The notes: generated by a model not told the origin, from the sequence alone. Shown: positions 36,908-54,919, counted from the stretch's first letter. The stretch is DNA of 64,000 nt from a virus (IMGVR_UViG_3300021121_000001:51328-115327), one strand, 5' to 3'. Numbers and translations are program-made.

Positions 36908-37576
36908 ATGAAGTCAGGAATATACAGTATAACATGTCTTATTAATAATAAAAAATATATAGGTTATGCAACAAATCTTCAGAAAAGAAAAGGAAATCAT
37001 TTTGATGATTTAAGAGATAATAAGCATAGGAATAATCACTTACAAAATGCTTATAACCTATATAAAAAAGAAAACTTCTTGTTTGAAATAGTTGAATACT
37101 GTAGAGTAGCTGATTTATGTATTTTAGAACATTATTGGGCACATTTTTATGATGTTTGGGATAGGGATAAAGGGTATAATATTGATAAAACTAACCCTGA
37201 TGGGAAAGCCAAAAGATCAGAAGAAACTTGTAAAAAGATAGGAGATGCTCATAGAGGAAAATTTGTCACAGATGAAACAAAGGAGAAAATTTCTAAAAGT
37301 AAAAAAGGACAAACTCATACAAAGGAAGCTAAAGATAAAATTGGAATAGGCGCAAAAGGTAGGGTATTTTCTAAAGAATCTCTAGAAAGAAGAGCAAATA
37401 CTAGATCTATACCTATTATTCAATTATCTAAGAATGAAGAATTTATTAAAGAATGGAAGTCTGCTAAAGAAGCTAGTGAGTGTTTAGATATAAATCATAG
37501 AAATATATCTAGCACTTGTAGAAAAGAAAGAAAAACAGCAGGAAAATTTATTTGGAAATTTATAATTAAAAATTAA
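36908..37576 (+). CDS. Free-standing GIY-YIG homing endonuclease with NUMOD3 repeats
   Basis: SGIY..YIG..R..H, GYN, ETKEKIS repeats, NUMOD1-like C-terminus. Confidence 0.9.
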   Translation: MKSGIYSITCLINNKKYIGYATNLQKRKGNHFDDLRDNKHRNNHLQNAYNLYKKENFLFEIVEYCRVADLCILEHYWAHFYDVWDRDKGYNIDKTNPDGKAKRSEETCKKIGDAHRGKFVTDETKEKISKSKKGQTHTKEAKDKIGIGAKGRVFSKESLERRANTRSIPIIQLSKNEEFIKEWKSAKEASECLDINHRNISSTCRKERKTAGKFIWKFIIKN

Positions 37577-40874: not shown

Positions 40875-41909
40875 TTACCAAACAACAAAAAGCTTATTGC
40901 TTTCAACAGCAATGCCGGAACAAACAAGAACATATAAACCTGTATCTCATTCACAATTGATTGATCTTACACTAAATAGCATAGAAAAAGCAGGATTTAA
41001 ACTTGACAAAGAACTCTACTCTGCCACTTCTGATGGATCTAAAGCTAATGGCAGATACACAATCAGTAATGTTTCAGATAGTGAAATGCAGCTTCAAATA
41101 GGCTGGCAGAATAGTGTAGATAAGAGTCTTTCTCTTAAATTTGCAATTGGTTGTCAAATCTTCATAAACTAACATGTGAAGAATAAATCTCTTTAATTGA
41201 CTGGAAACCCCTTAGAGCTTTGTACACTCCTACAAACAGTAATGATTTGTGTATAGTAAAAGAGACAAAGATTGGGCAATCAGCAGCCAAGTGTCCTAAA
41301 ATTAGGACAAAGGTTCAACGACTATCCCTTATGGGAGTACACTTAAGTGAGTGGAAACAGGAGAATGCATTAAGCATGTGATATAGTCTGAACATATTAG
41401 AGATAATATGAGTAATTATTTACAAAATACAAATAATTACCTGTAATAATAACGAAATTACAGAAACATAATGATGTCAAAATGGGGTTGTTCATGGAGA
41501 TATGGGCAATTTCAAAAAGAAACATATGGGAGAAATACAGGAATTTACTCCAACTGCAATTACAGAATATATAAAACAAGCAGGAGAAACATTTGAAAAA
41601 ATCCAAAAAGAAAGAGATGCGCTTAAGAAAGTGGAAATAAGTCCAAAAGTAAGAGCAGAGCTTCTTGGAAGAATGTATTTTGAGCAGGAATTACTAAGAG
41701 CAGATCAAATAGGAATTATTAAGAAAGAAATAATTTCTCCTTCGCATGATTATAATTGCAATGGATCTGCATGGGAATTGTATAACTATTGTAATTTTGC
41801 ATTAAAAGATTCACACCCGGCAAGTTACTTTAAGCAGCATACAGAATTGCATAGATTTTTTGTAAATGAATCAGGACTGCTTGTAGATGCAGAAATGGAG
41901 TTGGTATAA
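40867..41909 (+). CDS. DUF932/DUF945-like protein, spliced join(40867..41165,41474..41909), 244 aa
   Basis: TYKPVSH and NSxDKS motifs; splicing restores QIFI-CQNG; C-terminal AWELYN. Confidence 0.8.
41166..41473 (+). mobile_element. Group I intron (308 nt, no ORF; P7.1/P7.2 present, IA-like)
   Basis: 5' exon ends in U pairing with IGS GTGAAGA (U.G); ACAT/ATGT P10; AATTGACTGGAAA, AATCAGCAG, GTTCAACGACTA, GATATAGTC core; terminal G; frame restored. Confidence 0.9.
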
Positions 41910-42020
41910 ATTTACTATTTTATTTATTTTTATATACCCTTTCAGGTATAAAAATACTATTTTTTACAAAAATAATACCGAGAGGGTATAATTTTATTTC
42001 AGAATCAAATTTTAAACATG

Positions 42021-42053
42021 TCCCCTATAACATATTTGTTATAGGGGATTTTT
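42021..42053 (+). terminator. Rho-independent terminator
   Basis: TCCCCTATAACA..TGTTATAGGGGA-TTTTT. Confidence 0.8.
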
Positions 42054-42064
42054 AATTAAATAAT

Positions 42065-42322
42065 ATGTGGTATTTAGATGTAAAACAAACAATATGGGAA
42101 AGAATTGCAATAAATTCTGAAGATGATTATTCTAAAATTGTAGAAATGCTGAAAGAAGGAAAAAGCATTGAAAATATTTATAATGAATATAATATGGATG
42201 AATGTGAAAGTGAAATTCTTTATGATACAGCTACAGAAATGGATATAAATGAAAATGATGAAAATAGCACCATAGAATTATTAGATGAAAACATGCAAAC
42301 TGTCTGGAAAAATGGAAAATGA
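42065..42322 (+). CDS. Acidic hypothetical protein
   Basis: ORF. Confidence 0.6.
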   Translation: MWYLDVKQTIWERIAINSEDDYSKIVEMLKEGKSIENIYNEYNMDECESEILYDTATEMDINENDENSTIELLDENMQTVWKNGK

Positions 42323-42515
42323 AAAAGCTTTAGAAATACTTCTAAAAATATGTGAAGAATCTCCAAAAACTGTAATAGATCATAATTGGGAGGATTATTT
42401 AAAAGATACGGAAACATTGGAAGCTATTTTAACAATAGCAAAACTTCCAAATTATAGAAAAGTGTTAAAATTCTATGAAGGATACACTATTGAAGAACTA
42501 ATAAACAAAAAATAA
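42312..42515 (+). CDS. Hypothetical protein
   Basis: Coupled ORF (MENEKAL). Confidence 0.55.
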   Translation: MENEKALEILLKICEESPKTVIDHNWEDYLKDTETLEAILTIAKLPNYRKVLKFYEGYTIEELINKK

Positions 42516-44797
42516 TGGAACAAATAGGTGTAAAAAGTGACATTTCAAAATTACAACAATTATTGGGAAGTAAACTGTATTCAGATAAATACAGTTTTAT
42601 TCAAGAGCAAATGCAAAATTCCACAGATGCAATGAGAAAATGTGGAAAAGGTGATGAACCTTTTCATGTAGGAATTAAAAAAGATACTGGCGTATTTACA
42701 TTTTTTATTAGAGATTTTGGCTGTAGCTTTGAAAGCATTGATGATTTTAAAAGACTCATTGGTACATTGCTGGAATCAAGTAAATCTCAACAAAAAGATG
42801 CAAGTGAAGGTCAGGAACTTGGCAAATATGGGATAGGCAGTATTGCCTGTGCAGCCTATAATAAAGAATGGAATTATAAAGTTTATAAGAATGGGAAAGG
42901 TTTTGATGCAAATTTGAAAGAAATTGATGGAAAAGGATTGTTTCTTGGATGTTCTGATTATTATGAAACTGAAGAAGTGGATGGTGTTTATTTTGAAGTT
43001 GAAATAAATACAGAAATTAATGAATTTTATGATAAGCTCATCCAGAAAGCAAAATATTTTCAAAATATAAAATTTGTATGGGATAGTGATACTTTGGCAT
43101 ATTTTAAAAGTAAATATTTCGATGTTTCAAGCATTATTGACATTAACCAAAGATTCAAAATAGTGAGATCTGAAGATTTTCAGTACAGTACTTTGAATGA
43201 GCTTAATGAAATGCATATTTGTTTGGATCAATACAGCTATTTTATAAATTGGACAGAAGCAGGAATAAATAGAATAAAATTACCAATAGCTCTTAGATTT
43301 AGTTTAAATGAATTTGAAACCAATCCTACAAGAGAGGTTATAACAATTGATGAGAGCTATAAAGAAAAGATCAGAAACAAGGTAAAAAAAGTAGCTAAAT
43401 ATTTTCTGGATAAATACAATGAAGAAAATCCAGTATTTGAAGCAGAAAATCTTAAAATATATGAGCAAGAATTAATAAGAAGAGATGATAAATCCATCAA
43501 GATTGCGAATAAAGTAATAGATATTGAAGAGTTCTGTAAAACATATACACATGGATCATTTAATCTCCCCACTTTTAAAAATATAACTCCTAAAACATTA
43601 GATGATTTTCATAGATTTATGAATTTTTACGGAAGAAGAGTGTATAATGTATCTTATAAAATAAGAAGAGGAACATTATTAAGAAATACAAGTCTTACAT
43701 GGAATGAAAGAAGTACATTTATTCTTACAAATAGAAGATTGAAAAGATTTGAACAGGACTATTTAAAAACAAAAAATGATACATTTTATATAATTGAAAA
43801 AAGTAAAAATGACATAGTTTTAAAACATGACGGAATTAATCCTTCTATACAAACGCATTTTAATATTGAAGAAAGGGATATAAATTCAGAGCATGAAAAG
43901 ATGTTTGAAGATTTCAAACTTCTAAAAGAAGAACATGATAAAAATGTGTTTCTTAAAATAGAAGATATTATCCCAAAAGATTATGAAAACACCCTTCCTA
44001 AAAAAGAAAAAAAGAAAAAGGAAAAGGTGGAGAAATCAGAAGAAGAAATATTTTTGAAATACCCAAGAAGACCTGAAAGATCCTGTTCATGGTTTGCTGT
44101 ATGGCAAGATGCTCCTGTAAAAATGAAAAATTTGAGCAGGCTTCCAAAACTTCATATTTATGGAACAGAATCTAAAAGAAAAGATTTAGAATCACTTTAT
44201 GTAAAATTTCAAAAAAAGGATACAAATTTACAAATAATAATGGTTAGCGAAAAAACAGAAAAAATGCTTAAACAGGAAAACAATCATAATTTCATTCACA
44301 TAGATGATTTGAAAAACAATTTTGGAGTTATTTCAAAATATGCAACAATGGGTTATATAAAGAGCCAAGTATCAGATATTGAAAATATTTTGAAGCATCA
44401 TGAAATAATAAAAACCTATATATCAAAACAAATAGGTGATGACATGAATGAACTGGATGTTTTGCTTAAAAAATATGATCCAGATGATATTTTTTATGGA
44501 TTTGAAAAAACTATAATTAAAGAGATTGTAGATTTTTACAACAACAATCCAAAACTTTATGATCAGAATATTTTAGATAAAGCAAATAAAGTTTTAAGAG
44601 TGGCATCTAAATTGGACTTTGTGACTCTTTTTGCACATGATATAAAAACACAAAGTTCAAGAAAGGATATTGCTATTAAGACAATGAATGATATTTGCAG
44701 ATTCAGACAAGTTAGGATGAATTGGGAAAATTATATATTGGATAAAATAGAGCCTGTTAAACAGGTTGTAATTGTAGAAGAGGAGGCTGAAGTATGA
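42515..44797 (+). CDS. rIIA-like protein with N-terminal GHKL/HSP90-type ATPase
   Basis: LYSDK..IQEQMQNSTDA, IRDFG, SSK, GKYGIG, PTRE motifs. Confidence 0.8.
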   Translation: MEQIGVKSDISKLQQLLGSKLYSDKYSFIQEQMQNSTDAMRKCGKGDEPFHVGIKKDTGVFTFFIRDFGCSFESIDDFKRLIGTLLESSKSQQKDASEGQELGKYGIGSIACAAYNKEWNYKVYKNGKGFDANLKEIDGKGLFLGCSDYYETEEVDGVYFEVEINTEINEFYDKLIQKAKYFQNIKFVWDSDTLAYFKSKYFDVSSIIDINQRFKIVRSEDFQYSTLNELNEMHICLDQYSYFINWTEAGINRIKLPIALRFSLNEFETNPTREVITIDESYKEKIRNKVKKVAKYFLDKYNEENPVFEAENLKIYEQELIRRDDKSIKIANKVIDIEEFCKTYTHGSFNLPTFKNITPKTLDDFHRFMNFYGRRVYNVSYKIRRGTLLRNTSLTWNERSTFILTNRRLKRFEQDYLKTKNDTFYIIEKSKNDIVLKHDGINPSIQTHFNIEERDINSEHEKMFEDFKLLKEEHDKNVFLKIEDIIPKDYENTLPKKEKKKKEKVEKSEEEIFLKYPRRPERSCSWFAVWQDAPVKMKNLSRLPKLHIYGTESKRKDLESLYVKFQKKDTNLQIIMVSEKTEKMLKQENNHNFIHIDDLKNNFGVISKYATMGYIKSQVSDIENILKHHEIIKTYISKQIGDDMNELDVLLKKYDPDDIFYGFEKTIIKEIVDFYNNNPKLYDQNILDKANKVLRVASKLDFVTLFAHDIKTQSSRKDIAIKTMNDICRFRQVRMNWENYILDKIEPVKQVVIVEEEAEV

Positions 44798-45030
44798 ATG
44801 AAATGATTTCTGAATTGCTTAATTCTGATATACAGGAAAATAGAGAATTGGGAAGTGCGCTTCTTAAATCAGAACATATTCCTGAAAAAGAAAGGGAATA
44901 TTTTATTAGTGCTTTAATTGAAAAATTCCTAAAAAATCAAATAGGAAATACAGAAGTACTCAAAAATGTAATAGAGGCGTATAATAATTTATCAAGTAAC
45001 AATATTAAAAACAGAATAGAAAAAATATGA
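44794..45030 (+). CDS. Small LLNSxxxE-motif (HEAT/ARM-like) protein
   Basis: ISELLNSDIQENRELGSALL; coupled to neighbours. Confidence 0.65.
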   Translation: MNEMISELLNSDIQENRELGSALLKSEHIPEKEREYFISALIEKFLKNQIGNTEVLKNVIEAYNNLSSNNIKNRIEKI

Positions 45031-45659
45031 TTAAAAATTATGTTGTGGGAGATATTCTGACAAAAGCAGAATATGGTAATATACAGAAAAAACTGCTAGA
45101 AAAAATAAAAAATAAAGCAGAATTAGGACCCGGTAATGTATATTTCTCCAAAGAAGTAAAAACATCAAGAAGGCAATTTCAGCAGGATAATCCAGAGAAT
45201 AAAATTGTAAAAGACAAAAAAGAAGCAAAATATCATATAGGAGGAGTTCCAGATGTTAGTTTTTATTTTGGTGCTGCTAATCAAGAAGAATTTAAAGAAT
45301 CTGATATGTCAGATCATTGGAGATATGGTAGATGGCAAAAGTTGAATAATATTATTGATTTTATTAATTCAGATGTTATTTACATACACCCTAAAAACAT
45401 AAAATTAAAAGCATCTAATGGAGAAATTCCAACTGAAATGATTGAAAAGATACAATTAATGCTGCAATCTCCAGATGTAGAAACTTTAAATCTTGGTTTG
45501 TCTATTCTTTTTGAATATGATCATGAGATAAATACAGATGTATTTTTAGTGCTGTTATGTAAAGCAAATTATAACACTTGGTGGAAAAGGAGTAAATCAA
45601 GAAAAACAGAACCCAAAATTAAATGGATAAAAGACAAATATTTAAACAAAAACTTCTAA
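45027..45659 (+). CDS. Hypothetical protein with C-terminal MLQSPDVE motif
   Basis: Coupled ORF directly upstream of MoxR. Confidence 0.7.
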   Translation: MIKNYVVGDILTKAEYGNIQKKLLEKIKNKAELGPGNVYFSKEVKTSRRQFQQDNPENKIVKDKKEAKYHIGGVPDVSFYFGAANQEEFKESDMSDHWRYGRWQKLNNIIDFINSDVIYIHPKNIKLKASNGEIPTEMIEKIQLMLQSPDVETLNLGLSILFEYDHEINTDVFLVLLCKANYNTWWKRSKSRKTEPKIKWIKDKYLNKNF

Positions 45660-45671
45660 AAAATTAAAAAA

Positions 45672-47176
45672 ATGAACACAGAATTAATACCTAGCGAAGT
45701 AGCAAATATACTAAGATATACAATTAAACAAAATGTAGATCTGTCTGAAAAAGGACATGCTCCGGTAGCTATAAATATTGAAGGTGAAGCAGGACTTGGT
45801 AAAACATCAGTGGTGAAACAAGTGTGTGCTGAAAATAAAACACATCATTATATAAGACTCAATCTATCTGAAATTGAAATTGGGGATTAACCAAAAAAGT
45901 CAAATTTTAAAATGTTAATTTATATATTTTGACTTACTAAGTCCCCGTTAAATTCTGTGAATTGCTGGAAAAGCCTAAAAGGGTCAATCAGCAGCCAAGT
46001 TTTATAGAAATATAAAAAAGGTTCAACGACTAGCGTAAGGAGTCTTAACAGGTGGTGCTGAAGATAGTAAAACGCCAAGAGCGCAGAAAAATAATTGAAT
46101 ATACCAATATTCTTAAATTATTTATGATATAGTCTGAACTACAGCTATAAATAAAACTGTAGAAGTAAAGGATAAAGAGCCTTTACGATAACAAAATGTT
46201 AGTTGGTTTTCCAAACATACAATATAAATTGTGCAAAGAAGAAAATTGTCTTTGGGTTGCAGATAAAATTCTAAATGATTTTATTCTTCAGGGTTATCAT
46301 GCAAATGGAGAAACAAGAATGTCTTATGCTAAACCTGAATGGCTTGTTGGAAAAGAAGATAAACCTGTTTGTCTTGTTCTTGATGACTTTTCTAGAAGTA
46401 ATCCATTGATGATGAACGCTTGTATGCGTATAACTGATGAGCAGGAAACAACTTCATGGAAACTGCCTAAAGGTTCAAGTGTAATTCTAACTTCCAATCC
46501 TGATGACAGTGACACAAGCTTTTCAGTTGTATCTCTGGATGAGGCTCAAAAAACAAGATTTTTGACACTAAAAATGAAAGCAAGTGTTAACGATTGGGCT
46601 TTAGATTATGCTGAACCGGCAGGACTTAGCAGTTCATTTATTAATTTTCTTCTTAAACATCCTGAAATTATTGAAGGATCAAGTAAAGATGATGATGGAA
46701 ATGCCATTAAGAAAGGAAATCTAAGAGTTTGGACTAAGTTCTTTCATCTATGTGAAGGTCTTGCTAATAATCTTTCTGAAAATTGGAACACGGTTTTCCT
46801 TCTTGGTCAAAATTCTCTTCCTGTAGAACATCTTTTGATGTTGAATAAATTTATTGAAAATAAATTAGATAAACTCCCTTCTCCTGAAGAGTTGCTAAAA
46901 GGTAAAGCAGAAGATGCGTTGGATAAATTGAAATCTGTAATAGGAACAGAAGGAAACAAAAGAATTGATATTTCTTCTATTTTGAGTAGGAGAATTATGA
47001 ATTATACTTTGGTGAATCATAAAAAATTCACTAAGGATATGGTGGATGTTTATGCTTCTATTATGGAAAGCAATTACATGTCTCCAGATCTTGTATTGCT
47101 TTCTGTTAAAAAGACAGCAAAACTGTTTCCTGATTTGATCAAAAGACCAAAGCTTATAGCATTATTAACACAATAA
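45672..47176 (+). CDS. MoxR-like AAA+ ATPase, spliced join(45672..45887,46199..47176), 397 aa
   Basis: GEAGLGKT, restored IGD|LVGFP, LVLDDFSR, TSNP, LDEAQKTRF. Confidence 0.9.
45888..46198 (+). mobile_element. Group I intron (311 nt, no ORF)
   Basis: Exon GGGGAU pairs with GTCCCC (45941-46); ACTAA/TTAGT P10; AATTGCTGGAAA, AATCAGCAG, GTTCAACGACTA, GATATAGTC core; ends in G. Confidence 0.92.
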
Positions 47177-47183
47177 TTAACAT

Positions 47184-47212
47184 AAAAGGGGCAATATTTT
47201 TTGCCCCTTTTT
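47184..47212 (+). terminator. Rho-independent terminator between MoxR and VWA genes
   Basis: AAAAGGGGCAA..TTGCCCCTTTTT. Confidence 0.75.
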
Positions 47213-47241
47213 ATTATTTTTGTGTCTTAAATTAAATTGTT

Positions 47242-47444
47242 ATGAGTGTTAAAGAAATGTTAAATTCTGATGATATAGAAACAGCTAATTAGCTGCAAAT
47301 ATATTAATAAAAGAAATGTCAACTAACGATTTGACCCTATTACTTGATAAGGAAGGTAAATACAAATTATGGTCAAAAAATGGAGATGAGGTTTCTTTGA
47401 ATTACACTCCTAAGTATTTACTTACTAAAAAACCAATAAAATGA
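47242..47444 (+). pseudogene. Frameshifted small MLNSDDIE-motif gene
   Basis: MSVKEMLNSDDIETAN then TAG at 47290; the -1 frame continues LAANILIKE... to a TGA overlapping the next ATG. Confidence 0.6.
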
Positions 47445-50095
47445 ATTACATAAAACAAGAAAAAGAATTACAGAATATAAGCTTTCAACTCTTAAATAGT
47501 TCACAGACAGTATTTTATGGAATATTTTTAACAGAAGTTAACAAATATTTCAATAAGAGAATACCTACAGCATGTCTTGCAAAACATGAAAATGCAAGAG
47601 TTCCTGTAATGTTATTCAATCCTGAGTTTTGGGAAACTTTGAATGAAAAGCAAAGGAAATTTTTGGTTTTGCATGAAACTATGCACCTTATAGATTCTTG
47701 CTTTACAATGAGCAGGAAATTTGGAATGGAATCACCTTTAGACAATATTGCAATGGATGCATCTATAAATTCAAGACTTATAAATAATTATAAAGAAGAA
47801 ATAGAATTTATAGAAGGAGGAATATTGCCAAAAAACTTCCCTGAATTAAAATTGGAAGAAGAAAAAGATAGTGTTTATTATTACAGAATATTTAAGGAAG
47901 CAAAAAATAAGAAAGAAGAATCTAAAGGGAAAGAAGATAGCAAGGCAGGAGAACCTGGAAATAAAAATGGAACTTCTGGTTGCAAAAATCTTGATGATCT
48001 TCTTGATAACCAAGAAAAAATTGATTCCCATCCCACGTGGTCACAAGTGACAGAAGGAATGTCAGATATAGAAAAAGAAATACTTAAAAGGGATATAGTA
48101 AATAGGCTTGAAAAAATAGCTGAAGAGGTAAGTAAGCAAAATGGAAATATTCCTTCTCATTTAGAGGGTGTACTAAAAAGTATACAGAAAATAAAAGAAT
48201 CTGTTAGTTGGAAAGCTTTGTTAAGAAGATTTGTAGGAAGTACAGTTTCTTCAGATATTATGGCTAACAGAAAAAGACCAAGTAGGAGATTTGAAGAAAA
48301 TCCTTCTACAAAATTTAAATTTAAAGTATCTGGTTTATTTGCTTCAGATTAAAAATTGGCATGGTTTTTGTGTTTTATATGTGGAACTATTTCTCATTAA
48401 AACTAACAAAAATTAAAAATGATTAAAAAAAGAAAAATATGGACAAAAGAAGAAGAAGAACTTCTTAAAAAATTGATAATTGATAAAAAAACAACTGTTA
48501 AACAACTAGAAAGTATTTTTAGCACCTTAAAATCAAACATTTATAGTAAACTAAAAAGATTAAATTTATCTTTTACAGATTATTCTTTAATAAAAAATAA
48601 AAATTATTTTATAAAAGATGATATTATAACTGATTATAAAAATGGTTTAAATTGCTATCAAATAGCTAAAAAGTACAATACAACAAACACTTCTGTTGCA
48701 AAAATATTAAAATTAAATAATATTAAAATCATACCTTATCATTTAAAAAGTGCTAAAAAATATGATTTTAATGAAAACTATTTTGATTTAATAGACACAA
48801 AAGAAAAAGCTTATTGGCTTGGATTAATATATGCTGACGGAAATATATCAAAAGATTCTTTAAGAATATCTTTAAAAATATCAGATATTGATATTTTAAA
48901 ACAATTTAAAGATTGTATAGAATATACAGGAGATATAAAAATAAGTAGAAAAAAAGATAATATTATTTATGGTAAAAAGTGTAATTTTGAAGATACTGCA
49001 ACTATAAATATTTACTCAAAGCATATTTTTAATACAATACAAAAGTGGGGAGTTGTTCCTAACAAAACACATTTATTAACTTTTCCAAGTTTTTTAAAAA
49101 AAGAATTAATTAAAAGTTTTATGTTGGGGTATTTTGATGGAGATGGTGGAGTGAGTTTAACAAAAAAAACAGGTGAAATTAACATTAGTATTATTGGGAC
49201 AGAGGCATTTATTTTAGAATATCAAAACATATTAATAAAAGAGTTAGGTTTTAAAAAAACTAAATTATATGAAAGATACCCTGAAAGAAATACAAATACT
49301 AGAAGTTTTAATTACGGTGGAAATAAACAATTATCAAAATTTATAAAATGGTTATATAAAGATGAACCAATATTTTTGTCCAGAAAATATAATAAATTAA
49401 TCAATAATGTCAAGAGTCCTATAAAAAAGTAATTTTTTATAAGTATGTAGTGAATTGACTGGAAACCCCTTAGAGCTTTGTACACTCCTACAAACAGTAA
49501 TGATTTGTGTATAGTAAAAGAGACAAAGATTGGGCAATCAGCAGCTAAGTATCCTAATTAAAGGATAAAAGTTCAACGACTATTCCAGTGATGGAAGTAC
49601 ACTCAAGTGAGTGGAAGTGCTACACACCCTTATGGGGTGATGATATAGTCTAATCTTATAGGAAACTATAAGCAGTTTAATAAACGAATATAAATTAACG
49701 ACTTATATTGAATACAAATGTCAAGTGGATCAGTTTCAGATGAAATGCTTGAATTATGCAATTCAGAATTATATAATGTCTGGAAAGCAGGGGGTGATAT
49801 TGATTATATTAGTTGGGATCAGGAGGTGGATTCAGCAGGAGCTAAAGAATATGATGGAAAATTAAAAATAGAAAGAACTCAATGTGGTGGTACAGATTTG
49901 AATTCTGCAATTGTCTATGCAAATGAAAATTATAAAAAAAATAATTGGAATTTTTGTATAATAACAACTGATGGATATATTCCAAATATTACAATAAAAG
50001 CTAAAATACCAACAATGATACTTATAACTCCTGACGGGGTTACAAATTTTGGAAATCCTTTTAATTACAAAGTAGTAAAAATGCAAAAATGGTAA
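47441..50095 (+). CDS. Metallopeptidase (HExxH) + VWA protein (DUF2201-like), spliced join(47441..48349,49721..50095), 427 aa
   Basis: LHETMH, NIAMDxxIN, RPSRRF; splicing restores MIDAS D|SSGS; GGTD, TDG. Confidence 0.85.
48350..49720 (+). mobile_element. Group I intron (1371 nt) carrying a LAGLIDADG HEG 5' of the core
   Basis: Core at 49445-49720 nearly identical to the 41166 intron; 5' U and 3' G junction restores the frame; IGS pairing is weak. Confidence 0.85.
48419..49432 (+). CDS. Intron-encoded LAGLIDADG homing endonuclease with N-terminal HTH modules
   Basis: YWLGLIYADG and FMLGYFDGDG; WTKEEE Myb-like start. Confidence 0.9.
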   Translation: MIKKRKIWTKEEEELLKKLIIDKKTTVKQLESIFSTLKSNIYSKLKRLNLSFTDYSLIKNKNYFIKDDIITDYKNGLNCYQIAKKYNTTNTSVAKILKLNNIKIIPYHLKSAKKYDFNENYFDLIDTKEKAYWLGLIYADGNISKDSLRISLKISDIDILKQFKDCIEYTGDIKISRKKDNIIYGKKCNFEDTATINIYSKHIFNTIQKWGVVPNKTHLLTFPSFLKKELIKSFMLGYFDGDGGVSLTKKTGEINISIIGTEAFILEYQNILIKELGFKKTKLYERYPERNTNTRSFNYGGNKQLSKFIKWLYKDEPIFLSRKYNKLINNVKSPIKK

Positions 50096-50562
50096 AAATA
50101 ATAGAAACAGAACAATTTGAAAAAGAAATAGAAAGAATCAAGAATATACCAAATGCATTTAAAACTCCTTATGACAGAGGTGTATTATTTGCTTTTGAAA
50201 AAATGATCAAGGATACAAAACCTTATACTTTTATAGAGGAAAAACCTATTATTTCATCTAATGAATCTGTAAAAGCAGAAAAAATAATAGAACTTTTTGC
50301 AAAAACAAGTAATTTAACAACTAAACAGATCAAGTCTAAAACAAGAAAAAGAGACATAGTGGAAGCAAGACATCTTGCAATTTATGCTATTACGTTTAAT
50401 ACCAAACTAACATTAAAAAAAATAGGTAAATTGGTTGGAGGAAGAGATCATAGCACTATAATTCATGCAATAGGAAGTGGAAAAAGATTAATTGAAATTG
50501 ATGGAAAAATAAATGAAATATTTTTTAATAATATGAGTATTATCAAAAGCTGGAAGGATTGA
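50089..50562 (+). CDS. Protein with DnaA C-terminal (domain IV) HTH
   Basis: SKTRKRDIVEARHLAIY..IGKLVGGRDHSTIIHA. Confidence 0.85.
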   Translation: MVKIIETEQFEKEIERIKNIPNAFKTPYDRGVLFAFEKMIKDTKPYTFIEEKPIISSNESVKAEKIIELFAKTSNLTTKQIKSKTRKRDIVEARHLAIYAITFNTKLTLKKIGKLVGGRDHSTIIHAIGSGKRLIEIDGKINEIFFNNMSIIKSWKD

Positions 50563-50593
50563 AAGGTTTTATTATATTTCTGATTATTTTTTA

Positions 50594-50601
50594 TAACTTT
50601 G
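50594..50601 (+). promoter_or_regulatory. Bacteroidota -7 promoter TAACTTTG
   Basis: Consensus match 4 nt upstream of the ATG at 50606. Confidence 0.6.
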
Positions 50602-50605
50602 CAAT

Positions 50606-50851
50606 ATGAACATTGCAGAAAAAATAAAACAATTGCTAAATTCTGAAAATGATTGGGATGTAATAACAGGTATTAAACAAATGATTCAAAGTTTTGAAAT
50701 AGAAACAACAAATGAATTAAAAGAAAAATATCTTGAAATTACACAAAGAGAGGTTTTAGAATTTGGCAATTATTTTGATTTTCCCAAATTTTGTAAAACT
50801 GGATATATGTTCACTCCTGTTAAACGTGAAGAACTTAAAATAAAAAAATGA
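50606..50851 (+). CDS. Small LLNS-motif protein
   Basis: EKIKQLLNSENDWDVITG. Confidence 0.6.
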   Translation: MNIAEKIKQLLNSENDWDVITGIKQMIQSFEIETTNELKEKYLEITQREVLEFGNYFDFPKFCKTGYMFTPVKREELKIKK

Positions 50852-51243
50852 AAAAAAGAACTCCTAGAAAAAATCTTGAAAGACCTCATAATATGGGGCT
50901 TTGGACAAAAAGTATGTTTTTTGGTAAAATAAGACAAGTGCTTAGAAATGGTTTTAGATATTATAAACCAATACAACAAGCTTTATTAGATGCCAGGAGA
51001 CCTTCTGAATCTGATAACAAGAAATTGAAATGGGAGTTTCAATGTGCTCATTGTTTAAAGTGGTTTGATAGGAAATCTGTAGAAATTGATCACAAAATAG
51101 AATGTGGTAGTTTGAAAGATTGGGAAGATGTTGTTCCTTTTATACAAAAACTTACAGCAGAAGATCCAAAAATGTATCAGGTGCTATGTAAAAAATGTCA
51201 TAAAGTTAAAACTGAGGAATATAAAAAATCTAAAATAGACTAA
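50848..51243 (+). CDS. HNH-type nuclease
   Basis: CAHC..IDH..QVLCKKCH. Confidence 0.8.
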   Translation: MKKRTPRKNLERPHNMGLWTKSMFFGKIRQVLRNGFRYYKPIQQALLDARRPSESDNKKLKWEFQCAHCLKWFDRKSVEIDHKIECGSLKDWEDVVPFIQKLTAEDPKMYQVLCKKCHKVKTEEYKKSKID

Positions 51244-53718: not shown

Positions 53719-53943
53719 ATGGAAGAAGAATTATATAAAGTATACATGTTAGGTTGGAAATTAGGAGGATATATTAAAAGTTGGGATTTGAATTTTTATA
53801 ATGAAAATCATAAAATAGCTTTTACAATGGGTATTAGTGATTATATAATTGGTGACGATGTTGAAAGTTTTGATAATCAGACTAAAAAACAAATTATTAA
53901 AAGAATAAAAAAAATAATAAGTGAAAATAGCATTAACATATGA
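53719..53943 (+). CDS. Hypothetical protein
   Basis: ORF. Confidence 0.5.
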   Translation: MEEELYKVYMLGWKLGGYIKSWDLNFYNENHKIAFTMGISDYIIGDDVESFDNQTKKQIIKRIKKIISENSINI

Positions 53944-54919
53944 CGATATACAATTGATTCCAGAGTATTCTGAAATACAATCAAGAAAAGACATTTCTTT
54001 AGATACAAAATTGACAATAAACTTTTCTATAAATATGCCTATTATAGCTGCTCCAATGCCTACAGTTTGTGGGTTGGATATGGCTATAGAATTAATGGAA
54101 TTTGGAGCAACAGGCTGTATTCATAGATTTATGTCTATAGAACAACAAGCAGATGTAGTTGGATGTCTATTAATGAATAGAATGCATTCCCCTATTGTAG
54201 CAGCAGTTGGTGCTACAGGAGACTATCTTGAAAGGGCTGTAGAGTTAATTAATAGTGGAGTGGATGTTATTCTTATAGATGTTGCTCATGGACATCACAA
54301 GAATGTAAAAGAGGCTATAAACAAAATAAAACCTTTATTTAAAGGAGATATTATTGCCGGAAATATTGCCACAGCTCAAGCAGCTATAGATTTACAGGAT
54401 TGGGGAGCAGATGCATTAAGAGTGGGAATAGGAGGAGGAAGTCTTTGCACTACAAGATTAAAAACAGGTTTTGGAGTGCCAAATGTTTCATGTCTGATAG
54501 ATATAATAAAAGTTGCAAAGGTTCCTGTAATTGCAGATGGAGGTATAAGAACAAGTGGAGATATTGCTAAAGCATTGGCTTTAGGTGCTTCAAGTGTAAT
54601 GATTGGCTCTATGATTGCAGGTACAACAGAATCACCTGGAAGTCTTATTAGAAAACCTAATGGGTTATATAAGAAATATGAAGGAGCAGCTTCATTTGAG
54701 ACCAAGATCAATAATGGACAGGCTGTTAGGAACATAGAAGGAGAAAGTACAATAATTCCATATAAGGGAAATGTAAAAGAAGTGTTGTCTGATGTTATAG
54801 ATGGAGTTAAAAGTGCCTTGTCTTATGCAGGGGCTAATAACTTAAAAGAATTTAAACCAAAATTTGTTCAGGTTACAAACGCAGGACATATTGAAGGTAA
54901 ACCACATTTAATAAGTTAA
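53921..54919 (+). CDS. guaB: IMP dehydrogenase/GMP reductase family enzyme lacking CBS domains
   Basis: ALTYDDIQLIP, IDVAHGH, catalytic GIGGGSLCTT, IADGG, EG. Confidence 0.88.
   Translation: MKIALTYDDIQLIPEYSEIQSRKDISLDTKLTINFSINMPIIAAPMPTVCGLDMAIELMEFGATGCIHRFMSIEQQADVVGCLLMNRMHSPIVAAVGATGDYLERAVELINSGVDVILIDVAHGHHKNVKEAINKIKPLFKGDIIAGNIATAQAAIDLQDWGADALRVGIGGGSLCTTRLKTGFGVPNVSCLIDIIKVAKVPVIADGGIRTSGDIAKALALGASSVMIGSMIAGTTESPGSLIRKPNGLYKKYEGAASFETKINNGQAVRNIEGESTIIPYKGNVKEVLSDVIDGVKSALSYAGANNLKEFKPKFVQVTNAGHIEGKPHLIS

Follow-up and report, generated by a model that had tools for sequence, protein, structure and literature searches.

Two described phage gene pairs are among the systems closest to the locus analysed here. 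The N4 gp24/gp25 (vWFA) gene pair represents a conserved core of unknown function with middle-phase transcription (PMC4193335). In group 2.2 jumbo phages, a MoxR AAA+ ATPase is accompanied by a vWA protein that carries a fused zincin domain at its N-terminus, and the two were predicted to act as a chaperone-cochaperone system with proteolytic processing, for which a role in virion assembly was proposed (Iyer et al. 2021, PMC7824862). The same two-gene architecture was identified in a lineage of freshwater crAss-like phages, within a 64-kb stretch of DNA (hereafter the window) that constitutes the final part of a complete 115-kb phage genome. The zincin-VWA gene of the window matches N4 gp25-like genes in tblastn searches, the 'zincin-like protease fused to vWA' of AR9/PBS1 being also among the matches, and in phage ZC03 an ATPase gene is located directly upstream of the gp25-like gene, as is the case here. 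However, the N4-like loci are devoid of motif-bearing small genes, whereas around the pair in the window there is a previously undescribed family of small proteins, which changes fast and is united by one short helical hairpin. This family is absent from the jumbo phage study (PMC7824862), and in further contrast to that study the pair resides in a replication module, with genes for DnaB, primase, UDG, RecA and a PD-(D/E)XK protein nearby, and not among structural genes.

The gene order proposed in the initial annotation was borne out: a gene for a 760-aa GHKL protein is followed by genes for proteins of 78 and 210 aa (p78 and p210), a split AAA+ gene, a broken small gene, a split HExxH-VWA gene and a gene for an 81-aa protein (p81) (Table 1). 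The run is not one clean operon as had been supposed, since terminator-like hairpins were found at 42020-42049 and directly after the AAA+ gene; the latter hairpin also explains weak chance matches to Rfam. The DnaA_C-type protein encoded between the VWA gene and p81 is a neighbour of the module, and its membership is only putative.

Table 1. Features of the AAA+/zincin-VWA locus, in coordinates of the window
Feature	Position	Strand	Basis or remark
76-aa ORF	42285..42515	+	Occupies the slot of the ~100-116-aa motif family (a) of relatives
rIIA-like GHKL ATPase, 760 aa	42515..44797	+	tblastn to annotated rIIA; Atlas RIIA/HATPase_c_3 clusters
p78, N-terminal motif-like hairpin	44794..45030	+	Seven orthologues aligned (A6), motif block conserved
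p210, N-terminal alpha/beta (BRCT-like) and C-terminal ARM/HEAT-like helical domain	45027..45659	+	Motif at DNA 45441-45557
AAA+ (MoxR/AAA_5-like) exon 1, Walker A	45672..45887	+	Pfam AAA, phrog_1297
Group I intron, 311 nt, without ORF	45888..46198	+	Rfam Intron_gpI 73.6 bits, E=4.4e-19
AAA+ exon 2	46199..47176	+	phrog_1297 E=3e-17
Terminator-like hairpin	47184-47211	+	11 pairs, then T run; directly 3' of AAA+ gene
Frameshifted array-family gene, only one in the window	47242..47444	+	16-aa ORF 47242-47292, then 47289-47444 frame
Zincin (DUF2201_N, HExxH)-VWA exon 1	47441..48349	+	DUF2201_N 57.5 bits (cut-off 23.2); phrog_1314 E=9e-32
Group I intron, 1371 nt, LAGLIDADG homing-endonuclease ORF 48419-49432	48350..49720	+	Rfam Intron_gpI 80.9 bits on 49401-49672
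VWA exon 2	49721..50095	+	Pfam DUF2201 E=1.2e-4; gapless junction against L002
157-aa protein, DnaA C-terminal HTH domain	50089..50562	+	Pfam Bac_DnaA_C E=8e-21
p81, marginal motif carrier	50606..50851	+	Leave-one-out HMM E=0.0026

For the AAA+ and zincin-VWA genes, the presence of a MoxR-type pair, which is N4 gp24/gp25-like, was supported by Pfam and phrog matches. Wherever the positions of both genes were determined, 0.1-2 kb separate the AAA+ gene from the zincin-VWA gene downstream of it. The AAA+ protein is too divergent to yield a GenBank phage match beyond the Walker A region, and no sequence match was obtained in the PDB. Its Walker A motif reads G-x-x-G-x-G-K-T-S, and partial Pfam AAA, AAA_3 and AAA_5 matches fall on residues 36-77 and stay below the Pfam cut-off (best AAA_3 score of 20.3 bits versus 27, obtained with the intron-less orthologue of relative L002); the nearest Atlas clusters, which provide a lead only, are viral AAA_5/AAA. 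In the window as well as in relatives L002 and L005, Walker B reads hhhh-D-D instead of the expected hhhhDE with its catalytic Glu. The zincin motif of the partner is intact (H-E-T-M-H). Its MIDAS motif D-S-S-G-S is created across the splice junction; exon 2 alone reaches 22.6 bits with Pfam DUF2201, below the cut-off of 26.4, and phrog_1314 covers both exons.

Three group I introns were identified, with 54.5, 73.6 and 80.9 bits versus a gathering score of 50 for Rfam RF00028, all of which had been missed by whole-window Rfam scans. A U precedes the 5' splice site, a G is found at the 3' end, and splicing restores the ORF. The spliced AAA+ protein is 74% identical to the uninterrupted 397-aa protein of L002 with a gapless junction, and the spliced VWA gene that had been postulated was likewise corroborated, an Rfam intron lying between its exons. 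The 311-nt intron matches crAssphage and Bacillus phage intron regions and has a core in common with the other two introns. In the G001 clade the 1371-nt intron recurs at 97-98% identity, and its ORF matches Pfam LAGLIDADG_3 and phrog_4645.

For the GHKL gene, the rIIA-like label holds weakly. The protein resembles T4 rIIA in size and in its N-terminal GHKL N-box and glycine boxes, and it is weakly yet consistently similar to numerous annotated rIIA genes as well as to the rIIA-like gene of the crAss-like IAS virus. In a tblastn search that matched 59 records in all, the rIIA-annotated records listed had E-values of 8e-5 to 7e-4 and 24-27% identity over residues 13-349, and Atlas 'RIIA protein' clusters scored 0.99. 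No Pfam or PHROG match was obtained for the protein of the window, and the L005 orthologue reached only E=0.073 with Pfam HATPase_c_3. T4 rIIA has an rIIB partner, whereas none was detected here, as had been noted before: the next genes encode p78 and p210, and an IAS-virus rIIB-like query, which is a weak test, found nothing in the genome. L005, among others, has an orthologue of the rIIA-like gene in the corresponding position, and L002 has none; the gene is thus dispensable in one relative, and its inclusion in the module was not sustained.

The shared motif defines a real family, but its sequence-based membership differs from that initially listed. The module comprises approximately 25-40 residues with the consensus M-L-x-S-x-D-x-E-[IT]-x-x-L-G-x-x-[IL]-L, and was found in more than 20 related phage contigs, distributed over four to five protein families that are otherwise unrelated, namely a ~105-aa protein (family (a)), the p78 type, a ~180-aa protein with a C-terminal module, the conserved p210 type with its BRCT-like and ARM-like domains, and a tandem array of 0-8 genes of 65-130 aa that combine an N-terminal module with a divergent beta-rich tail. 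Its N-terminal, internal or C-terminal placement, depending on the family, fits a shuffled domain. All carriers are encoded on the AAA+ strand within a few kb of the AAA+ gene and its zincin-VWA partner, with ~87 motif instances in 17 loci. In HHalign comparisons the families match each other exactly on the module (family (a) versus p210, E=2.2e-5; 180-aa family versus array, E=1.9e-5; array versus p210, E=1.7e-4 over 44 columns). The family is much larger than the four ORFs initially listed. Among 1.84 billion proteins, 90 representative clusters with a mutual identity of <=50% were recovered at E<=1e-3, nearly all of them 33-134 aa long with the module within residues 2-38.

That the similarity is a product of chance or composition in an AT-rich genome, with no real family behind it, could be suspected from the marginal outcome of leave-one-out tests with an HMM of the four segments of the window (p78, E=1.5; p210, E=0.047; p81, E=0.0026), and from the failure of an independent profile (A10), built without the small ORFs of the window, to recover p78 and p81 in the 115-kb genome. 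However, both matches of that profile in the whole 115-kb genome fall in this locus (p210, E=1.3e-13; 16-aa ORF, E=1.3e-5), and in a second complete genome of 169 kb all seven motif matches lie within 7.9 kb at the same locus; a six-frame search of the two genomes revealed no motif match elsewhere. Together with the HHalign values, the conservation over more than 20 loci and the 90 significant clusters, these results make chance an extremely unlikely explanation overall: it is refuted for p210 and the array and could apply to p81 alone. The proposed linkage to MoxR/VWA genes appears to be tight within this phage lineage, keeping in mind that most loci were retrieved through AAA+ similarity and that linkage is biased accordingly outside the two complete genomes. 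A general linkage to MoxR/DUF2201 genes was not found, as the MoxR-VWA loci of N4-like, Alishewanella and Alteromonas phages and the relatives with AAA+ at 36% identity contain no motif.

As relatives L005 and L006 have different arrays despite 100% identical AAA+ genes, array genes have been swapped between phages, which would be compatible with a DNA-level recombination or regulatory cassette that yields the peptide likeness as a by-product. This explanation is contradicted by the codon analysis and is almost certainly wrong. Identical module residues use the same codon in 59% of cases versus 58% expected, and the conserved Ser (95%) is encoded by TCN and AGY codons alike, which indicates selection at the level of protein rather than DNA; in addition, the module also occurs inside longer ORFs.

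Of the four ORFs in the window to which the motif had been ascribed, p210 and the 16-aa ORF stand beyond chance by profile A10, p78 is a probable member and p81 is marginal. p78 represents a conserved family whose motif is gapless and very similar, with weak profile support (HHalign E=5.5e-3 versus the array and 0.54 versus p210). For p81, HHalign gave E=0.047 in a different register. This gene sits 3' of the VWA gene, and in relatives L029/L030 the array is likewise downstream of the VWA gene. The small gene between the AAA+ and VWA genes was correctly recognized as frameshifted: a -1 shift restores a reading that lines up one to one with the residues of the N-terminal module in intact relatives such as L002:11876-12151. 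The shift corresponds to the loss of 1 nt from a T run, and intact relatives align through the break (92 aa in L002, 101 aa in L016 and 109 aa in L011); judged by its reading frames, the array gene that the window carries has been inactivated by a frameshift of 1 nt. The 76-aa ORF at the upstream end can be regarded as the counterpart of family (a) by position only, its motif being degenerate with an internal deletion (BLASTP E=0.08 versus L005:3585-3926, with a 12-residue gap across the first helix).

Structurally, the module is modelled as a helix-turn-helix hairpin of the ARM/HEAT type, in which a short helix and an S-x-D turn are followed by a longer helix. AF2 predicted the motif region as a confident helix-turn-helix, with pLDDT of 92-96 for the p210 blocks and about 90 for an array protein; in p210 (overall pLDDT 86.5) the helices span residues 136-146 and 151-161. 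The HEAT/ARM-like character suggested earlier is supported by these helices and by the superposition of p210 residues 130-210 on ARM/HEAT proteins including designed armadillo proteins (rmsd about 3 A over 70-80 residues), with VIA Z values of 4.9-5.9 that are in a range common for helical proteins. The BRCT domain of MCPH1 gave a VIA Z of 5.3 with p210, and BFVD matches of p210 were crAss-like virus proteins. No Pfam Arm/HEAT match was obtained at E<=10 for 11 members of the p210 family, nor for the small proteins. The motif resembles the armadillo H2-loop-H3 consensus; Armadillo/HEAT proteins are solenoids of repeats, whereas the small proteins described here carry one unit. The motif profile also weakly matches the repeated hairpins of P0071, a DUF4116 (PF13475) protein (DUF4116 E=1e-81), with a summed E=1.1e-4 over 7 stretches. 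This match consists of short sub-motif stretches only (profile positions 10-20), and the likeness is probably a convergent helical-repeat turn.

It is plausible, if tentatively and at somewhat less than an even chance, that the module is a common docking domain onto one shared partner encoded in the locus. Carrier proteins would use the module to bind this putative partner, which may be the AAA+/VWA machine or, through stacking of helices, p210 with its ARM-like domain. In the array proteins the variable tails would then recruit different clients, or else regulate remodelling or proteolysis in alternative ways. The common helical tag on adaptors or clients of a chaperone-protease system that was initially proposed is likewise a hypothetical role of the motif. 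Tethering motifs of AAA+ adaptors and the poxvirus ankyrin/PRANC proteins similarly combine a conserved docking element with variable target-binding parts in expanding families, a likeness of logic only, with no homology to the carriers described here. Array genes are gained and lost rapidly, which suggests that the clients may be host proteins engaged in an arms race, and this turnover is the only hint of a candidate role in counter-defence.

Several observations argue against docking and would fit paralogy without a shared partner, in which the module is the structural core of locally duplicating small genes, neighbouring genes gained pieces of it by illegitimate recombination, and the AAA+/VWA site is a hot spot where insertions of accessory genes are tolerated, with no functional tie. 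The array varies from 0 to 8 copies and is dispensable, as relative L015 has no array gene between its AAA+ and VWA genes. The motif is missing from the distant loci mentioned above, and a hairpin resembling a terminator stands between the AAA+ gene and the array and VWA genes. Furthermore, the clustering of paralogues may be explained through tandem duplication alone, and the conserved S, D and E may be mere structural caps at helix N-termini, as in generic ARM/HEAT hairpins or designed repeat proteins. Paralogy of this kind is considered slightly less likely than docking. In the p210 family alignments (A2/A5) conservation is highest in the module, and p210 stays next to the AAA+ gene in relatives whose AAA+ identity is as low as 57-59%. 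Protein-level selection maintains the module in families that share nothing else, and the array moves with the pair, either between the two genes or directly 3' of the VWA gene, where it is still adjacent in L029/L030.

A conserved N-terminus, a variable remainder and fast turnover are also the pattern of T4 internal-protein loci, and the N-terminal module of the array proteins might, like the capsid targeting sequence of T4 internal proteins, direct small proteins of variable sequence into the virion, to be injected. Such a virion-targeting signal is very improbable here, as the module occupies an internal or C-terminal position in three of the families, constitutes a folded helical hairpin inside a domain rather than a short leader, and is encoded in a replication module instead of among structural genes.

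Beyond the docking role favoured above, an unlikely extension of it is that the AAA+/zincin-VWA pair may be a retargetable phage machine for remodelling and proteolysis, with p210 as a fixed scaffold and the array proteins as interchangeable adaptors that would deliver host proteins, e.g. defence or replication-associated ones, via the hairpin for unfolding or cleavage. If this were true, the array would be the phage equivalent of adaptor families that expand, as the poxvirus ankyrin/PRANC proteins do, and the function of the N4 gp24/gp25-type core module would become approachable for the first time.

The motif that the initial annotation had seen in four ORFs belongs, in at least two of them, to a helical-hairpin module of about 25-40 residues (consensus M-L-x-S-x-D-x-E-[IT]-x-x-L-G-x-x-[IL]-L), a shuffled domain that is under protein-level selection, and is confined to genes around the AAA+/zincin-VWA pair, among them one tandem array of small genes with fast turnover. 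The ORF list at the locus was borne out, and was refined by introns and classification. A profile built from the window's four motif segments alone gave marginal evidence for the motif. Homologues of p210 (the 210-aa protein) led to the 33-kb contig L002, and alignment scans with p210 and the AAA+ protein led to more than 20 loci. A profile iterated over six-frame ORFs identified about 87 module instances in the first 17 loci, all encoded on the same strand as the AAA+ gene and no more than a few kb away from it, and the loci found later added further instances with the same pattern. Five kinds of carrier were distinguished: (a) a protein of 100-116 aa encoded 5' of the rIIA-like gene, (b) proteins of the p78 type, (c) a protein of about 180 aa with a C-terminal module, which is not present in the window, (d) proteins of the p210 type, where conservation is highest in the module, and (e) the tandem array, with the module at the start of each small gene. 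Profile-profile comparisons between the family alignments connected (a) with p210 (E=2.2e-5), (c) with the array (E=1.9e-5), the array with p210 (E=1.7e-4) and p78 with the array (E=5.5e-3); the values were E=0.54 for p78 versus p210 and E=0.047, in a different register, for p81 versus the array. The proposed four-ORF family thus stands for p210 and the broken array gene, whereas p78 is a probable member by sequence and the membership of p81 is doubtful. A 345-aa gene adjoining the AAA+ gene in a related locus (L031), taken by eye as p210-like, was rejected (HHalign E=0.025, wrong register).

An independent module profile (A10), built without the p78 and p81 families or the broken gene of the window, recovered just p210 and the 16-aa ORF at 47242 from the complete 115-kb genome, and in a second complete genome (169 kb) all seven of its seven matches lay within 7.9 kb. 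Against 1.84 billion representative proteins it gave 90 matches at E<=1e-3, nearly all of them 33-134 aa long and carrying the module at residues 2-38. Of the 89 representatives compared, 49 shared less than 50% identity (identity times coverage) with every sequence of the analysed loci. By these sequence comparisons the module family is real and large. At 50% identity the small-protein family makes up at least 90 clusters; it has no Pfam or PHROG model and therefore represents unannotated sequence space; full-text literature searches found no description of it. The module profile also weakly matches repeated hairpins of a DUF4116 protein (P0071, 407 aa), a resemblance that may reflect convergence or a very distant link.

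For the module itself, AF2 models predict a confident helix-turn-helix. The module helices occupy residues 136-146 and 151-161 of p210 (pLDDT 86.5), and in an array protein, modelled at pLDDT 74 overall and about 90 within the module, helices at 3-7, 12-24 and 30-40 precede a beta hairpin; this model had no structural match exceeding Z 4.2. The C-terminal domain of p210 can be superposed on ARM/HEAT proteins, designed armadillo proteins included, with modest scores (Z 4.9-5.9), and the Arm and HEAT Pfam models gave no match; the initial HEAT/ARM-like label therefore holds for shape and makes no claim of membership. A PDB profile search with the module returned only insignificant matches, to designed repeat proteins, and Foldseek of p210 against PDB returned nothing at E<=0.001. 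The C-terminal domain also follows a longer N-terminal region of another kind (P0069, 328 aa) and is present in a shorter protein (P0080, 138 aa), as a mobile domain would be. In the p210 model the N-terminal domain resembles a BRCT domain, with a modest match to MCPH1 BRCT (VIA Z 5.3, rmsd 2.2 A over 57 residues) and weak Foldseek matches to Sir4 H-BRCT and an RFC-PCNA complex chain; such a domain, if true, would be unusual in a phage replication-module protein.

Among 66 distinct module sequences, Ser is conserved in 95%, Asp in 86% and Glu in 89%, and conservation at the hydrophobic positions is 76-95%. Codons agree at 59% of identical residues, where codon usage predicts 58%, and the conserved Ser is encoded by both TCN and AGY codons; the conservation is at the protein level. 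Readings of the motif as a packaging signal, a chance likeness or a DNA cassette are minor rivals, unlikely or refuted.

The array varies from zero to eight genes across loci, and differs between L005 and L006, two loci with 100% identical AAA+ proteins; in two further loci, L029 and L030 (AAA+ identity 57-59%), it is placed 3' of the VWA gene. The small gene initially described as frameshifted proved to be the sole array gene of the window, inactivated by a frameshift equivalent to losing 1 nt from a T run. Decoding the TAG at 47290 as an amino acid would not restore the gene, since a TAA lies five codons further on. In L009, a 164-aa ORF carrying two module copies looks like two array genes fused into one.

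It is possible, and is tentatively preferred here, that the hairpin docks on a common partner encoded in the locus, with the variable tails supplying specificity. The main rival, in which the carriers are local paralogues functionally unconnected with the pair, is given a somewhat lower but appreciable probability. The linkage of the motif to MoxR/DUF2201 genes holds within this phage lineage; no motif was found in distant MoxR-VWA loci (N4-like ZC03 and Alishewanella and Alteromonas phages) or in relatives with 36% AAA+ identity. Searches of viral contigs for relatives of two representative proteins, P0093 and P0069, found none, and of 24 loci matching a degenerate DNA pattern for the motif core, none contained an AAA+/VWA gene or matched the motif profile.

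For the pair, the MoxR label could be kept only as MoxR/AAA_5-like, from weak profile matches, phrog_1297 and the nearest Atlas clusters; no PDB relatives were found by sequence, and GenBank phages gave a single match, at the Walker-A level. Walker A is present and Walker B is D-D: it reads hhhh-D-D instead of D-E in the window, L002 and L005, and the catalytic glutamate may be replaced. A terminator-like hairpin (47184-47211) lies directly 3' of this gene. The VWA protein, as initially described, has an intact HExxH, its MIDAS D-S-S-G-S is made by splicing, and its homologues include N4 gp25-like genes and the AR9/PBS1 'zincin-like protease fused to vWA'. The 760-aa GHKL protein was weakly corroborated as rIIA-like (tblastn and Atlas neighbours), with no rIIB found; a search for related loci with this protein returned nothing from viral contigs. 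The rIIA-like gene is missing from L002, and is therefore no obligate part of the module locus.

Three group I introns, related to one another, lie inside 9 kb. All exceeded the gathering threshold in Rfam scans of short (~330-nt) windows, whereas whole-window scans (gathering; also E<=1 over 9.4 kb) detected none of the three, a filter false negative that is worth heeding for other windows. The AAA+ and VWA splice junctions are gapless against the uninterrupted L002 orthologues, and the DUF932 junction (41165/41474) is likewise a gapless fit. The VWA intron ends are 97-98% identical to those in L018 (also L025-L028 and G001, a related genome), a clade in which the AAA+ protein shares only about 70% identity with that of the window, which fits recent homing between divergent phages. 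The AAA+ gene of relatives carries inserts of about 1.3 kb, sharing a codon with the window's intron (residue 72/73) in L009 and L014 and lying at residue 42 in L008; this gene appears from sequence to be an intron hot spot.

Features of the module locus and its relatives (window coordinates unless a related locus is named)
Feature	Coordinates	Evidence or remark
GIY-YIG endonuclease gene	36908-37576	free-standing
Group I intron in DUF932 gene	41166-41473	Rfam 54.5 bits
rIIA-like gene	42515-44797	
p78	44794-45030	
p210	45027-45659	
p210 N-terminal domain	45027-45420	residues 1-130
Group I intron in AAA+ gene	45888-46198	311 nt; Rfam 73.6 bits
Part of AAA+ exon 2	46199-46420	Walker B
AAA+ gene of L002	L002:10631-11821	Walker B
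Broken array gene	47242-47444	
Group I intron in zincin-VWA gene	48350-49720	1371 nt, with LAGLIDADG endonuclease ORF; Rfam 80.9 bits
Related VWA intron	L018:10039-11409	
AAA+ gene inserts	L009:5692-7001, L014:5749-7001, L008:5625-6911	
p81	50606-50851	
131-aa ORF	50848-51243	overlaps p81 end
GMP reductase/IMPDH-family gene	53921-54919	Pfam E=3e-97
Two-module ORF	L009:8032-8523	

The virus record is complete (115,327 bp, direct terminal repeats, ~30% G+C; the window is bases 51328-115327), and the module locus lies within the replication module. Pfam identified there a DnaB-like helicase, AAA_24, a GIY-YIG endonuclease, DUF932, a PD-(D/E)XK nuclease and the GMP-reductase-family gene, likely a nucleotide-metabolism auxiliary gene; a RecA-reading gene matches the RecA gene at the equivalent place in L002. 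The 131-aa ORF has a Cys/His pattern resembling HNH endonuclease, its sole Pfam match being a sub-threshold PHD zinc finger. The best match of the rIIA-like gene (crAss-like IAS virus), the introns (crAssphage intron regions) and the p210 model (crAss-like virus proteins) point to a phage of the crAss-like type, a lineage mostly met in JGI and ENA metagenome contigs.

In jumbo phages the pair is a predicted chaperone-cochaperone with peptidase (PMC7824862), and in N4-like phages it is a core module without known function (PMC4193335); full-text searches found no paper tying DUF2201 or crAss-like phages to MoxR in this way. The AAA+/vWA pair is conserved as an N4-like core module and recurs in jumbo and crAss-like phages with no assigned function. 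In a lineage where it sits amid proteins with a common docking-type hairpin, those of a fast-evolving array among them, concrete candidates for partners or clients are at hand, and the function of the pair could therefore become experimentally approachable.
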